A stretch of 64,000 nucleotides of DNA. It comes from Lama glama. Taxonomy: Eukaryota. The notes below the pieces were generated by a model that did not search any database, was not told the DNA's origin, and was given only the letters and a program-made list of their open reading frames with translations. Every line of letters starts with the position of its first letter. The stretch's first letter is position 1. A program made the translations under genes and the position numbers. Below are positions 1 to 63,802 of this stretch, in pieces. The DNA is taken from contig CM052839.1 of assembly GCA_028534125.1 (NCBI GenBank), positions 8,556,001 to 8,620,000 on the forward strand, given 5' to 3'.

Positions 1-2893
1 GAGCGGACCCCGTCCACTCGTATACAATCAGAGGAAGAACTGTTTACTTCGGTCCACCCTTGGGGCCAGGGACAGAACCTGGTTCTTCCCTGTGACCCCA
101 CCTCACAGCACTGACCAGGCATCCTTCAGGGGTTGGTAAATGTAGAACTGAATTGCTCTTTGCTTCAGAGACCCAGATCAAGGGCCCCGTGACCTGAACC
201 AGCTAGACGCCTCAGCCACCAGGCTGAAAACCACCAAGGACTGGCATGCCAGGGTTGTTTGCTGAGGAAGGGAACACTGAAATAAATCCTAACTTTAAAA
301 AAGAAATATATCCAATCGGTGTCCTATTTATATGAAAATCAGCTCTGTTTTTAGGTAACTGCCCTCCCGCCTCACCTCCCCAAGATGGGCCCTGCCCTCC
401 CGCAGGTCCCCTCCACACCCTACCCGGTAATCATGGCCCTACCTGTTCCCATCCCCTCTCCTATTTGCTCTCTGGGGTTTCCCTCGATTGCAGGGTGAGA
501 GCTTCCAGACGCCCCAGCAGCCTGTCTCATGCCTGGCCCCAGACTCCCTCCCTCTCTCCCTGACCTGCCCTTCTAATCAAGGAGTCCAGAGGAGCAGGCC
601 AGAGTCAGGTCTGATGGCCTGTGGGGTGGGGAGGGGCAGGGCAGGGCAGGGAGTTGGTCTGTAACTGGGTGCCCCCTTAACTGAGCCAGAGCAGGGCAGA
701 TCCACAGCTCGGGGCATAGGAACCAGGCCCTGCTCCTGCCGATCTCTGTAAGGTCAGCAGGACCCCACTCCCTAGTGCAGACAAAACTCAAAGTTTACAT
801 GGCTCAGTGATGAGAACAGGACTTTGGAGTCAGGCTCTCAGTCCTGGTCCTGGCTCCACTGCGGCTGCCAGCATCTAGACAACTCGCTTACCTCCCATCC
901 TCTCGCAGCCTGAGACCCCTCCCTGGCCAAACGGAGCCGCACCTGCTGCACTGGTCTGCTGAGGGCCACGCTGTGAGGCCGCTGGGCCACGTGTGAAACC
1001 CAGTAGGTCGAGAAATTCAGATTGGAGAGCAGCAGCTCCATGCATCCCATGTGCTCATCAAGCCTTGGTCCTGTGAGCCTCCTCCTCTGGTCCCCCGACT
1101 CACCCTCACCTCCTTCATCAGCTCCCTTGTTCCAGAGTCCCACAGGGGCCTTAGGGAGCACCCCACCCCCACCCCGCTCTCTGGCAAGTTTCCAGCTCCT
1201 CATGGAGGACCAATCGGGAGAAGGGTACCAGGGGACCCTCAGTATCCTGACAGCTCCTTCCAGCCTCCAGCCAGGTTCTACGAAGAGGTCACGGCGAGCC
1301 TGAGGTGGGGGCTGGAGCTGGGGCTCACCGTCCTGGGAAACTTCTGAGCCTCCCTCACAGCTCAGCACTCAGGCAGGCACCCAGCTACCCACAGCTGCGG
1401 TTTCCAGAGAGCCAGGCCTTCCACCGCAGAGACAGTAAACTGAGAAGCACTGGAGCTATAAATGTGAAGTGGTGAACCACGGGACACTGCCACAGCCCCA
1501 CAGCGGGCAGGAGCCTGCCTCCCCTGCCTCCCCACCGCCCTGCAAGCTGTGGGTCCCCCCCCCCGCCACCCCCCACCCCAAGCCTCTGAAACAGCCCAGG
1601 CCTGCCTGCCAGCCTCCCAGCTCTGGGCTCTGAGCAGGCTTGTTGCCCCACCCCCACCCCCAGGAGGTCCCAGGCACAGGGTAAGTCCCTGCTGGGGGCA
1701 GGGCAAGCAGGACGCCACACAGCACTTTGCAAGCCAACAGTCAGGGCCACTGGCCTCACCTCACAAGCACTGTCTTGTTTTATGTTGACTTACGCAAAAG
1801 GAGGGGGACCCGTAATCTTTCTGGAGCTTACTCTTAGTCGTGCCCGGGGTGGTGCCAGGTCACAGCTTCAGATCCATTTGGAGGCTACCTCCAGAAAAGT
1901 CAGGGTGACCTTGGGGTGGACCTGGGGCTCATGTGGGCATGACGGACATCCTCATAGGCACTGCTGAAAAGGAGACCTAGGAGTGGCTGTGATGGCTGAT
2001 GACACAAGAGCAGCCCCCTTCACCAAGTGCCCGCCGTGTGCCCAGCCCAAAGCGCTCAGACCATGGAAGGGTTATTGTTTCACAGGTGAGGGACCACACC
2101 CAGGGAGGAGGTCCAGAGCTCAGCTCTCACACTCAGGCCTGGGCAGGAGTGCAGTGCAAGGTGGGGAACCAGGGCCCATCGGGAGGAGTCTGGGGAAACA
2201 GAGCAAGGGAAGGGAGGCCCCTCTTTCTCTGTCCTCTCAAAGCCTGCCAAGGAAGGGCCTGTCCTCCCACATCCCTACTCTGCTGGACAGTCCGTTCCCT
2301 AGCAAAGGCCCCTTCAATTGGGCTAGGGAGCTGGCCGGGAAAGGTAAGGTCACCCTCAGTGTGTCTGCCACCTGCCCCACAGGGGAGCCTGGAGATGAGC
2401 CCTTGGTCTCTGGGGAGGCCCCATGCAGTGGGATTCTCCTGAGCAATGTTCCTTAGCTGCAGCCCCTTGAGGGAGGTGGACAAAGATGGATGCCTGGGAA
2501 GGGCCATCAGCCAAGGTAGAGGTCCTCCTGGGAGCCTGCGAGGAAGAGCTCTGGGCTGGGTGATGGAGAAGAGAGACAGTGAGGGGCCTCTAGACATGAC
2601 CACAGCCCAAGGGTCACCGATCAGGGAAGTCCCTGGAGCCTGGTAGCCCGTCCACACTCTTTGTGAGTCAGGTAGTTTAGTTTCCCAAGCCTGCTAATAG
2701 GAAAAATAAAAAATAGACTGGACAAATGTTTACTGCAAAAGATATTTAGTATTGCTTACTTGTAAGAAACTTCAAAAGTTTACAAGGGGTCATAAAAGAA
2801 AGGTTTAACATATGGAAAAACACCATTTTGTGTAGGATGGGTCAATGTTGTAAAGATGTCATTTCTCATCTAACCTTGTCTACAAACCTATTC

Positions 2894-2929
2894 TGGCAGG
2901 CGAGAATTCTACCACTGAACCACCAATAC
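2894..2929 (-). pseudogene. Tailless retropseudogene of the 5' half of tRNA-Gly(GCC)
   Basis: Minus strand reads GTATTGGTGGTTCAGTGGTAGAATTCTCGCCTGCCA, 35/36 identical to nt 1-36 of mammalian tRNA-Gly-GCC. Flanked by direct repeat ctacaaacctattctg at 2880-2895 and 2929-2944. Confidence 0.9.
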
Positions 2930-2944
2930 TACAAACCTATTCTG

Positions 2945-3300
2945 ATTCATTCATTCATCCAACACTTATTGAGCACCTACTGTGTACCAGGCATGTTCTA
3001 GGCACAGGGGATACAAGAGTGAACAGAACAGAGAAAAATCCCTGTCCCCGTGGGGCTTACATACTTAAAGATGGGAGAGAGGCAGACAAACAAAAGAGAG
3101 AACTAAAGAAGTAAATTATCTAGTATACTAGATGAAAAATGCAATTGAGGAAAATCAAGGACAGTGTAGGGAGTGTGGGGCAGGTGGGGAGTTATTTAAA
3201 ATAGGCTGAGGAGTAGTAACGTTTGAGCGGAGTTTAGGAAGGTGATGAGGCAGGAGTGTACTTTGCTTGCTCTAGGAGCAGCAAGGAGGCCCGTGTAGCT
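2945..3300 (-). mobile_element. L2 LINE 3' fragment
   Basis: attcattcattca...ttattgagcacctactgtgtaccaggc signature of the L2 3' end; boundaries approximate. Confidence 0.7.
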
Positions 3301-3314
3301 TCCTATCAGAGTGA

Positions 3315-3515
3315 GTCAGCGGTTCTCAGACATTTGGCAATGCCTGGAGACATTTTTCATTGCCACAACTGGGGGAGGGGGGTGCAGGGTTGCTGCTGGC
3401 ATCTGATGAATAGAAGCCAGGATGCTGCTGGACATCCTGCAGTGCACAGACAGCTTCCTGCAGCAAAGATTGATTTGGTCTGAAATGCCAATTGTGCTGA
3501 GGTCAAGAAACCCTG
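3315..3515. mobile_element. MER20-like hAT-Charlie DNA transposon
   Basis: gacatttggcaatgcctggagacatttt...tgctggcatct...gctgaggtcaagaaaccctg matches the MER20 pattern. Confidence 0.7.
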
Positions 3516-3559
3516 GAGAGCGAGGTAGAGTTAGGGGGTGAGGTAGCCAGAGACATAAC

Positions 3560-4750
3560 TACCAGCCAGATTTTTGGGGAACTAGAGAAGCTGATTCAGA
3601 AATTCTTATGGAAAAATATTTGAGAATTGCTGGGGGCAGGAGGTGGAGAGGATTAAAAAGAAGAATAAACAGTAACTAGCTTCGCTAGATCTTAACATAC
3701 ACTATGAAATGACTAGTCTCCTTAATATATAGAAAGTTCTTATAAGTGAATAAGAAAATATCTTTTTAAAAAACTCCTGAAAAATGGGGAAAAGACAGGG
3801 AGTTTACAAAAGAAAGATATACAAATGGATTATAAATATATGAAAAGTGCTCAAAATTACTTGGAATTTAAGGAAATGAGAATGAAAATCATGAGAGCAT
3901 TTTGCAACTATCAGAGTAGCAAAGATTGAGAAGTTTGATTACACACAGAGTTGCTTAGGCTGTGGAAGAATATGGTCTCATCCACAGTTCTTCAGAATAT
4001 ATATTGGCATAGCCTTTTTGAAAAGCAAATTGGTAACAGCTGTCCCAGATTTAAATACATATACCTTTTCATCCATCATGCCCTTCTAGGAGAGTACGCT
4101 CACCGGTTTACTAAGTACAGCTGTGTTTATTTCAATATTAGCAAAAGATTGGCAACCATCCAAATGCCCATCAACAGGAGACTTGTTTATTATGTGGTAT
4201 GCACTTACAGTGGAATACTATGCAGCTTTTAAAAAGATTGTGGCTTACTCCTAGGCACATAGCCAAGAGAAATGAAAACATGTGTCCAAAAAAAGACTTC
4301 TGCAGAGAATTTTCTAACAGCTTTATTCAGAGAGCCCTCAACTGGAGCAACCCAAATGTCCATCAAAGGGGAATAAACAAATTGTGGCATATTCACACAG
4401 TGAAACACTACTTAACAACAATGATAAAAAGAATAAATGGTTACACAACAAGAATGAATTTCAGAAACATTTTGTTAAGCAGAATAAATCAGACACAAGA
4501 GTGTGTACTATATGATGCCATTTACATGAATTTCAACAGGCAAAACCAGCTCATGGTGACAGAAATCAGAAGAGTGGTTGCCTCAAGAAGGTGCAGATTC
4601 CTGGGAAGGGCAAGAGAACCTTCAGAGGGTAAGGAGATGGAAATGGGGTGTTGCTTACACAGTATACACAGTTGTCTAAATCGTTGAATTGTACACTTAA
4701 GGTCTGCAGTTCACTGAAATTAATTTCACTTCAATTTAAAAACAAAATTA
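3560..4750 (+). mobile_element. Old L1M LINE fragments (ORF2 end / 3' UTR)
   Basis: A-rich decayed L1 motifs such as caaatgcccatcaacagg and aacaaattgtggcatattcacacagtgaaacacta. Confidence 0.65.
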
Positions 4751-4906
4751 ACTATTAAATGGGGGGGGAGTCAAACTTAATATGTCCTGAAATAGAATGA
4801 TCTCCCAGTGAATTAAGGGAGAGGGGTAGAAACAAGGACAGAAAATGTGCATAGTATGCTCCCAGATGTAATAAAATGCTAAATATCTGTTACATACACA
4901 TGTATG

Positions 4907-5084
4907 CAGTCTGCCCTCTGTGTGCACAAGTTCCGCCTCTGTGGATTCAACCAACTGCCACGCGGGATCCACAGATACCGAGGGCAGACCCTCCTAGGCT
5001 GTTTTATATAAGGGACTTGAGCATCCGTGGGTTTTGGTTCCGGAGAGGGTACTGGAACCATCCCCTGCGTTACAGGACCAACTG
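4907..5084. mobile_element. MER2-like TcMar-Tigger element, internally deleted
   Basis: Ends cagtctgccctc...ggattcaaccaa and ...ggaaccatcccc...accaactg|ta resemble MER2 termini. Confidence 0.65.
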
Positions 5085-5755
5085 TACCTGTAGCATTTCT
5101 AGAAGGACACATAAGAAACTGTCGGACAGTGGTTGCCTTTCTGGTGGGGCATGGAGGCCTCAAGGTCTGAAGTGGAGAAACATGTCTCAATACTTTTTTG
5201 CATGGTTGAAATTTCTTCCGCTGTGTTCATGGTAACTTTTTAGTTATAAAAACTGTTAAAATTTCTTGATTGGACAGCAGTGTTCTAAGACTGTAGTATT
5301 TCTCTACCTTTGATAGCTGGAGGCAGGGACATAAATGCTGCTCTGAGACTGCCAGCCATGGGCGGCCTGTATTTCTGAGGGTGGAAGTGTGAGTCTGCCC
5401 GGCATAGCAGGGAACCGCCTGGAAGGTGTTCCTGGGGCAGGGGCGTGAGAACCTGAATCAGGGAAGTAAACTGAATATCTATCTGAAATCAGGGACTTCC
5501 ACCAGAAATGATAAGCTTTCTGTTGAAGAATGTAAAAACTCATCCAATGGTATGGGAGATTTATTTTGATGGATTTTTTTTTTTTATGTTAAAAGAAGTT
5601 TCCTCGGGTTGGAGCACAAGGCTTTTAAGAGGATGTGGGAGTAGGGGAGAGAAGGCTAGATAGGTAGGCTAGATAGAGTAGGCTAGAAGAAGGAGTTCCT
5701 AGCTAAGAAGAAGACTGCTGGGTGTAGTTTTTAACCAGACAATCCAGCATTTGTC

Positions 5756-5761
5756 TTTATT
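5756..5761 (-). terminator. Candidate SLC13A5 polyadenylation signal (AATAAA)
   Basis: tttatt on the plus strand about 2.4 kb past the stop; another copy at 6248-6253. The site actually used cannot be determined from sequence alone. Confidence 0.3.
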
Positions 5762-8204
5762 TCCACAAACAAGAACATGCCATCAAGGGTCCTACCTGAG
5801 AAAATCTGCATTCATTTTGAGAATTGGACTCTGCTAATGGGCTGACTCGCTGCTTGGAGTCCAGAGCAAACTACCGTTATTTTTGTGTGTGAGAGATGGT
5901 GGGGAGGGGAAAAGGCCTTACCTGTTCCAGGGCATGCCCTGCTCACTGGCCCTGCCAGAGGAGGTGGCCCAGGTCTTTCCCTAAGGAGGTTCTCAGCTCA
6001 GAGGGACAGGAAAGGATCCCAACTGGTCAACCTCCTCAACCTTGATATCCACTCTCCCAAAACCCCGCCCAGCTTTCTTGTCACCCCTCAACCTGATGCA
6101 GTCCCCCTGCCCTTCCATCAACCCCACCACTTCCTCCCCCATCAGTCTGGCCAGTCCCACTCAGCCTTCAGTGCCCACCAGATGACCTTCACTGACCTTG
6201 CTCACTACCACCAGGCATGCATCTAATTGACCACACTGAACTAATCATTTATTTACCGATCACACTTGTGGTGGCCTGCTGTGGCTCAGCCATAGGGCCG
6301 GCACAGGACCCAAAGGGCAGTGTGAGTCCCGGGGGCCCTCACAGTGTAGGGAGCACTGATAGAGGGGTGGCTCAGTTTTATCTTGTGGGGGAGCAGGGAG
6401 CCATGTTCATATTGCTCTCTCCAACCAAAGGCTTGGCTTCTGCAGGCAAAGACCAGCCTTGTCTGCTCCAGGACTGACTTGAGTCCATCTCAGAGGAGGC
6501 AGCAGAAGGGGGCTCTTGTTGATGATCCCTGAGCAGGCAGGGCCTTGGGGTGGATTTGCACTTGGCCACCACCTTTCCCCACAGGCCCTACAAGGCCAAG
6601 GTCCTTAATAGCTAGAGGAAGCAGCAGCGGACATGGCAGTGAAGATCTGGATTGGAACCTCAACTGCCACTAACTTGATGCGTGACTGTGGACATGACTT
6701 GGCCTGTCTTAGCCCCAGTATTAATGAAAGCCAGATGAGGTTAATAATGCCTGCCTATCTCACAGGCTACGGCAAAGGTCAAGTGATAACTAGCAGACAG
6801 ACACACCAGGGCCGGGGAGGCCCGGCACACAGGAGGTGAGCAGTGAGTGCTCTTCATCCACTCACCCCGCCCACCCCCGACAGCTCAGTGCACCTTCCAT
6901 GGGAGACAGATGGGATGGTCAGGAATCATCCCACCCAAGGAATAAGGTGGAACCAGGTGGTACATGCTTGGTCCTTTGCAGGGGGGTGGGGGGCAGTCCC
7001 TTGGGTTCCCATACCTTCTCCTGCTCTGAAAAATACCACCAATGGAGCAGTGCAAGAGAAAAATAAAACTGAGTTGTGGGCAAGAGTGTGGGAGTCTCCC
7101 ATGTATCTCTCACAGGGGATCTGAGGGTTCCCAGCCACTCTGGAGTCTTTGCCCAGCAACTTCAGGTAGATTCACTCATGGACAAGGACTATCTGCTCCG
7201 GGACCACCAGGCGTTGCTTGTTCTCAGCGCTGCTCTGTCACCACCAGTCTTGGCTGTCGGCAAGGGGAGTCTTTCCCCAGAGGAAACCAAACTCCAGCAT
7301 GACAGACAAACTCTGAAGGAACCCTGCTCTTGGTAATTAACAAGTGTCCCCTCTGGACCTGCAGGTGAGGGAGCACCTGGACCCCCAATTGTGGCCCCAA
7401 AGGAGCCATCACTGCCCGTAGTGGAGCGTGATCCCAGCCATCAGGGTTGGGGTGGGGGGCAGGAAAAGCATCTCCTGGAAGAGCCAAATTGACCTGCCGA
7501 GGAGAAGAAGGGCAGATTCTAACAAACGTCAGCAGGACGACAGAGGGGCCTAGGGACTGAAGGAGATGTCCCGCAGAGCTGCGAAGGGGGTCCAAACTGT
7601 CCGTTAAAGTGGAGCCGGTAGCCGTGGGGTGCTGTGGGTGGCATGGCCCAGAAGTTATCGACTCAGATCCACCATACTCCTGCTGGTTCCCACTCTCACT
7701 GCAGCAGCGGGAAGCCGCCCAGGACCAGGCGTTCTGTCCCTGGGCTGGGTTGTCCTTTCCGAGTGACAGGGGTGATCTGAGGCAGCCCAGGGTAAGCTGG
7801 GAGAGGCACAGGCTCTGGAAGGTTGTTTGCTCACCTCTCAAACTAGGATCTGAGTCCTATTTAGATGATGAGTAGACACCAGAGCCCAGCGTGGGGCTAG
7901 CTCTAGACTGAGTTGGGGAGGACCCTGCCCATCCCAGAGATGATGGCAGGACCCAGGAGAGATGGACACCAGCAGCCCCTTGGGAGGCACCCTTCACTTC
8001 CAAGACTACCCTCCAGGCACCTGTCCCCAGCTGTGACCCTGGGCGTGGAGGAAGATGTGGCCCATTGGCTGGGTCTCTGTAGGGTGTGGTCATCATGGGA
8101 TCACCATGGGGGTGGCCAAAGCTCTGCTGCAAGGTGTACTGGAAGTTTCGGGAGTTCTCCGGAGTGTGGGGTCGTGGTCGTGGTCTCATGGCTTTTCCTA
8201 AGTC

Positions 8205-30740
<22,536 letters not shown>

Positions 30741-39940: not shown

Positions 39941-40040
39941 GGGTGGGGAGTGGGTATAGCTCAGTGGTAGAGCACGTGCTTAGCATGCATGAGGTCTTGG
40001 GTTCAACTCCCAGGACCTCCATTAAAAAATAAATAAAATG
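39941..40040 (+). mobile_element. tRNA-derived SINE (camelid Vic-1-like)
   Basis: gggtatagctcagtggtagagc A-box, gggttcaactccc B-box, A-rich tail; TSD aaataatttg at 39930-39939 and 40041-40050. Confidence 0.9.
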
Positions 40041-47373: not shown

Positions 47374-47413
47374 GCTGGATGCAGAGGGAGCCCGCTGGAT
47401 GCAGAGGGAGCCC
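47374..47413. repeat. 20-bp perfect tandem duplication
   Basis: gctggatgcagagggagccc twice, followed by a degenerate third unit. Confidence 0.9.
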
Positions 47414-63716: not shown

Positions 63717-63802
63717 GAGGGGGTGAGGGGTATAGCACAGTGGTGGGGCACATGCTTAGCATGCCTGAGATCCTGGGTTCAATCCCCAGTACCTCCATTA
63801 AC

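Follow-up and report, generated by a model that had tools for sequence, protein, structure and literature searches.

Tailless retrocopy of the 5′ part of tRNA-Gly(GCC) in the llama genome and its probable origin by priming inside an intact tRNA

Tailless retropseudogenes of tRNA were reportedly described by Schmitz et al. in 2004. The accessible text of Noll 2015 (PMC5322556) defines the class by a near-complete 5′ end, a 3′ truncation, flanking duplications (TSDs) of 8-35 nt and the lack of a tail; it describes targets complementary to the terminal 2-18 nt at sites unlike TT/AAAA, counts unprocessed tRNAs among the sources, and favours internal priming on the evidence of 5S and U2. The available part of its human supplement holds 13 GlyGCC, 16 GlyCCC and 67 GlyTCC rows, with a length of exactly 36 bp for the first of them, and 9 of the 13 GlyGCC rows measure 35-37 bp when counted inclusively. 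The class is mentioned only in passing in the available portion of a preprint from 2025 that deals with L1 chimeras. Our literature searches returned nothing on tRNA-half retrocopies with TSDs from tRNA-Gly and nothing on camelid tRNA pseudogenes and retrotransposition, which does not prove their absence from print.

The window, a stretch of 64,000 nt from Lama glama (assembly GCA_028534125.1, contig CM052839.1, positions 8,556,001 to 8,620,000), carries near its start a copy of this kind with the following features, given in window coordinates.

2880-2895, no strand: TSD copy flanking the insert on its 3′ side, positions 2894-2895 coinciding with tRNA nt 35-36
2896-2928, minus strand: part of the insert not shared with either repeat, corresponding to tRNA-Gly(GCC) nt 2-34 and carrying the C>T change at nt 2
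2894-2929, minus strand: full tRNA-matching span, nt 1-36, 35/36 identical to the tRNA-Gly(GCC) gene L003 of the same genome
2929-2944, no strand: TSD copy flanking the insert on its 5′ side, position 2929 coinciding with tRNA nt 1
2945-3080 (outer limit approximate), minus strand: flank with a short (GAAT)n run abutting the TSD, resembling, in our view, an old L2 3′ terminus

The direct repeats are identical at 16/16 positions and their extension fails on both sides, which bears out the perfect 16-bp TSD proposed in the first-pass annotation; the only other exact 16-mer repeat at a spacing of 16-100 in the 64-kb window is a tandem of 20-bp period at 47374. The annotation was also right about the 36-nt tRNA match with a single C>T change at nt 2 and no tail. 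Comparison with L003 placed this sole mismatch at window position 2928; nt 36, the base that follows the anticodon, is the last to match, and the TSD comes directly next to it, with no A tail. The CA shared by the insert and the repeat at its 3′ end was equally borne out, and the G of nt 1, previously unremarked, is shared with the repeat at the other end. Because nt 1 and nt 35-36 overlap the repeats, the template is demonstrable only for nt 3-34 (33 bases lie between the two repeats), and nt 1-36 would be its probable extent. No extra bases stand between the TSD and nt 1, giving the copy a mature 5′ start without a leader.

Placed beside the screen of Noll 2015, as its accessible text gives it, the copy falls within the class to which it had been assigned. 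It starts at nt 1, or at worst at nt 3 (complete or ≤5 nt from the RNA start in that screen); it lacks 35 of 71 nt (truncation ≥10 nt), measures 36 nt (≥30 nt) and is identical at 35/36 positions (>69%); its TSDs agree at 16/16 positions (8-35 nt, ≥70% identical) and follow the tRNA match directly, in place of an oligo(A) tail; and it ends in the loop, one base past the anticodon, with a 2-nt overlap (loop truncation, 2-18 nt complementarity). The window copy is thus a real, ordinary tailless tRNA-Gly(GCC) retrocopy, a member of a class catalogued since 2004. Like the examples in the available text, it is 5′-complete, loop-truncated and free of oligo(A), with a TSD within 8-35 nt and a target other than TT/AAAA; unlike them, it lies in another genome and locus, has an overlap at the low end of the range (2 nt) and carries the nt-2 change. 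Its target, AT/CAGAA, is less A-rich than the consensus TT/WAAAAWW, which the source offers as a description and not as a screening criterion, and fits it only loosely, but it equals the pattern of the sister copies in the same genome.

The tRNA-derived SINEs and tailed tRNA retrocopies are likewise tRNA-derived and presumably L1-mobilised, but they retain the tRNA in full, box A and box B included, and carry a tail, whereas the window copy has neither B box nor tail. Two ARAGORN calls of tRNA-Ala(AGC) in the window, at 39950-40021 and 63726-63797, look like such SINEs, one with an A-rich tail and the other followed by a (GAT)n run. Over the insert itself neither ARAGORN nor Rfam called a tRNA, as expected for half a tRNA, and the seven Rfam matches in the window (E 1.2-7) were all at chance level and lay elsewhere. 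The cloverleaf, B box, and terminator or tail of a functional tRNA gene or SINE were not found in the insert. A B-box motif, searched as a sequence pattern, was absent from the 243 bases downstream, so Pol III transcription of the copy would not be expected, and the copy is predicted to be inert.

The insert lies 6.6 kb beyond the last matched exon of an SLC13-type transporter gene on the minus strand, whose PF00939 exon matches run from window position 25963 down to 9504. PF00939 is the sodium:sulfate/citrate symporter family, and the cluster in the window (G000:C24:8565504-8581963) is one of five such gene-like clusters in the genome. A Pfam search of 23 of the 26 long frames in positions 1-20000 gave a single SLC13-type match and none near the insert. 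A tRNA cluster with a Gly-GCC gene is ~0.9 Mb from the insert on the same contig. At ~0.8 Mb from the window, ARAGORN also called a tRNA-Pro(CGG) (L032:154-225) in a cluster that includes Asp, Gly-TCC and Trp genes.

Sister copies were collected by genome-wide searches of the 2.35-Gb assembly. An exact search with nt 3-31 of tRNA-Gly(GCC), to which copies ending before nt 31 or mutated are invisible, gave 19 matches, namely 11 full-length Gly genes (9 GCC, 2 CCC) and eight 5′ pieces that include the window copy. Six of these eight pieces end at nt 36, with overlaps of 2-6 nt and repeats of 7-23 bp, and the ends of the other two are decayed. Extra 5′ bases on three Gly 5′ copies (L001, L002, L016) resemble Gly gene leaders, with GTT as in L012 and L027 and AA as in L003, L005 and L009, and are too short to assign.

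The Gly-TCC family offered a much larger set. The query covered nt 9-28 and would show copy ends from nt 28 on; it returned 71 matches, of which three known genes were left out and the remaining 68 were all truncated. After removal of six copies with a weak repeat and seven duplicates, 55 distinct copies with a TSD remained, as delimited by a simple best-score script that put a small number of starts wrongly, at nt 39 or 45. Perfect TSDs were present in 39/55, with a median length of 17 bp, and the tRNA and target overlapped by at least 2 bases in 52/55. The 3′ ends fell at nt 37-39 in 48/55 copies and at nt 34-35 in two, with none earlier. Clustering of 3′ ends, which the first-pass annotation had put forward as a check, was therefore found at the anticodon in both families. 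When the targets were aligned in register, C occupied the last anticodon base in 49/54 and A the next base in 50/54, and two bases further there was no excess (G in 10/54). None of the 55 had a TT/AAAA target, and two (L071 and L143) have targets starting CAGAA like that of the window copy; the earlier suggestion that the window target is special for departing from TT/AAAA thus fell away, this being the norm of the class. Taken across the class, a T/A-rich target logo of the ORF2p type is suggested. Tailless Gly-TCC copies in general (L070-L099, L133-L170) are very numerous and come from few genes.

The 5′ ends of the same copies carried information on the template. At least three extra bases preceded nt 1 in 37/55 Gly-TCC copies, and 13/55 had the mature 5′ start seen in the window copy. 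The commonest extra motif (17/55, ending TGCA) matched none of the four Gly-TCC genes found, so that its origin in a leader is only presumptive, hinting that the source gene of the TGCA type is missing from the assembly. The His-GTG search was more direct. Its 21 matches comprised seven genes, three identical further copies and 11 copies that were truncated, at nt 36 in 10 cases; four of 10 copies match the upstream sequence of a His gene at 17-18 of 20 bases, showing that unprocessed precursors served as templates. Tailless His-GTG copies L101, L104, L108, L113 and L109, set against genes L117, L118, L112 and L105, keep 15-20 leader bases, and such gene-specific leaders allow the source genes to be named. 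Three other His copies (L100, L111, L115) have a single extra G before nt 1, which we take as a possible G-1 of mature tRNA-His. With iMet, Asp-GTC and Lys queries, which were exact or near-exact and miss older copies, all seven iMet matches were genes, one of eight Asp matches was tailless, and one of 12 Lys matches was truncated and one was not scored.

We consider it probable, at about three chances in four, that the window copy is a tailless tRNA retropseudogene made by LINE-1 (L1) TPRT started inside an intact tRNA, the enzyme being assigned from the TSD length and the class. A nick by L1 ORF2p would have freed a DNA end finishing in TG; this end may have paired with the C-A of tRNA nt 35-36 on the 3′ side of the anticodon loop, where the overlap itself is seen; reverse transcription would then have run to the mature 5′ end; and a staggered second nick 16 bp away would have left the duplication that is observed as the product. 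With synthesis primed in the loop and run to the 5′ end, neither the tRNA 3′ of the loop nor any tail would be copied.

tRNA halves end in a cyclic phosphate and arise in the cytoplasm, and both properties speak against an unlikely rival in which the template of the same L1 insertion was mature tRNA-Gly(GCC) already cut to a 5′ fragment with its end at nt 34-37. The window copy does start at the mature 5′ end without a leader, as a cleaved half would, and this start means that nothing in the copy itself shows the template to have been uncut; the three His copies with the extra G likewise indicate that mature tRNA or its pieces can be used. The copy further resembles the Gly-GCC 5′ halves, tiRNAs and sperm tsRNAs, as described in the available sources, in its 5′ start, its nearly identical sequence and its end in the anticodon loop. 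Such 5′ fragments of tRNA-Gly(GCC) occur abundantly in serum and have been reported from sperm, and RNase A-family enzymes prefer C-A (10.1101/815803, accessible part), the dinucleotide at nt 35-36, so that cleavage just 3′ of nt 36 would lead to an identical product. The reported ends, in contrast, lie elsewhere: the available texts give 30-33 nt for Gly-GCC halves in mouse serum, with the cut lying 5′ of the GCC anticodon (PMC3654920), place the IRE1 cut in tRNA-Gly(GCC) after nt 33 (PMC11519470), find ends by cyclic-phosphate sequencing enriched at the first anticodon base and rare at 37-38 (10.1101/815803), and specify sperm fractions of 30-34 nt (PMC11740426). Against halves of 30-33(34) nt, the insert reaches nt 34 in unshared bases and nt 36 in matched ones; since it needs nt 34, and nt 35-36 for priming, the common halves would be too short barring a chance match, which for a 33-nt half means three more bases at ~1/64 by simple arithmetic. 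Among the Gly-TCC copies there is no peak at nt 28-34, many sister copies carry precursor leaders, and in the available human list Gly-TCC outnumbers Gly-GCC by 67 to 13 (Noll 2015, PMC5322556), so that the family with the famous half is not the one richer in copies. Of the two templates named in the first-pass annotation, internal priming on a full tRNA is thus favoured by the sister copies and their leaders, and the abundant cleaved 5′ half is opposed by its reported ends; the reading as a fossil of a stress or sperm tRNA half is disfavoured. The likeness of copy and half probably reflects the exposure of the loop to nucleases and primers alike.

Two further explanations depart from L1 endonuclease or from a truncated insertion altogether. 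RNA-templated patching of a staggered break, by L1 reverse transcriptase at a nick or by another polymerase and with microhomology at both junctions, would account for the target other than TT/AAAA and for the overlaps of 2 nt at the 3′ junction and 1 nt at the 5′ junction, and the accessible text of Noll 2015 (PMC5322556) states that ORF2p can use existing nicks. The perfect 16-bp TSD, however, sits at the class median and is typical of TPRT, targets of this kind are the rule of the class, and a shared nt-1 G occurs in 5 of the 13 Gly-TCC copies with a mature start, a frequency not clearly above chance, all of which makes patching highly improbable. Still harder to sustain is a longer or full tRNA copy that lost its 3′ half, or a chance likeness with a local duplication. 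The Gly-GCC-bearing tRNA cluster on the same contig lends it some plausibility, but the repeat abuts the truncation exactly, the end point recurs at dozens of independent loci, and no gene leader, trailer or B box lies nearby; the calculated chances are ~1e-7 for an exact 16-mer pair around a given insert and ~2e-11 for an exact 34-mer (nt 3-36) in the genome, and we regard this origin as nearly negligible. Priming inside an intact tRNA by L1 remains our preferred reading.

The T at nt 2 has no counterpart in any Gly-GCC gene among the matches, and all 11 full-length matches to nt 3-31 have C. The change is not at a CpG. It fits a point change acquired later, or an error made as copying neared the template end, and it also fits a stop at nt 3 followed by one untemplated base, with the G in the TSD there by chance. 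One full-length Gly-CCC locus with T at nt 2 (L027) was ruled out as the source, since it differs at nt 7 and 33. This tRNA-Gly(CCC) (L027:1456-1527, G000:C35) carries three changes (nt 2, 7 and 44), two of them in the 5′ strand of the acceptor stem, and is probably a decaying gene.

The insertion had been called recent on the strength of its unmutated TSD. The TSD is indeed unmutated, with one change in 65 site-branches (33 of the insert, 2 × 16 of the TSD) giving a divergence of 1.5% (95% range 0.04-8.6%). At assumed substitution rates of 1.2-2.2e-9 per site per year, the calculated age is 7-13 My, with a range of 0.2-71 My, and a 16-bp TSD would still be perfect after 20 My with a probability of 0.24-0.46. 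Given these survival odds and the wide range of ages, a recent origin holds only loosely. In 20 public DNA runs under four organism labels, five of which may be the source of the DNA in the window, the 901-bp region gave word shares of 0.84-0.98; nine of the runs stood at 0.93, a value that fits an empty allele (6.8% loss) and two SNPs (7.1%) equally. A young, still segregating insertion from a cleaved 36-nt 5′ fragment of mature germline tRNA-Gly(GCC) would agree with the mature 5′ start, the single change in 65 sites and the share of 0.93, and we hold this reading to be very unlikely; if true, it would preserve in the genome, with a date, the writing of a sperm-type tRNA fragment into DNA.

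By itself the window copy is one neutral insertion of little significance, with a possible use as a presence/absence marker among close relatives. The warning that the locus could attract mis-mapped tRF reads was justified, as nt 3-36 map to it exactly and nt 1-33 at the cost of one mismatch; that tRF reads map to such loci is a general problem already in print, as far as the available sources go. The more useful outcome is the census of sister copies, in which the priming register is fixed on the last anticodon base and the one after it. Together with the frequent use of precursors as templates, this fixed register argues against such copies being fossils of stress or sperm tRNA halves.
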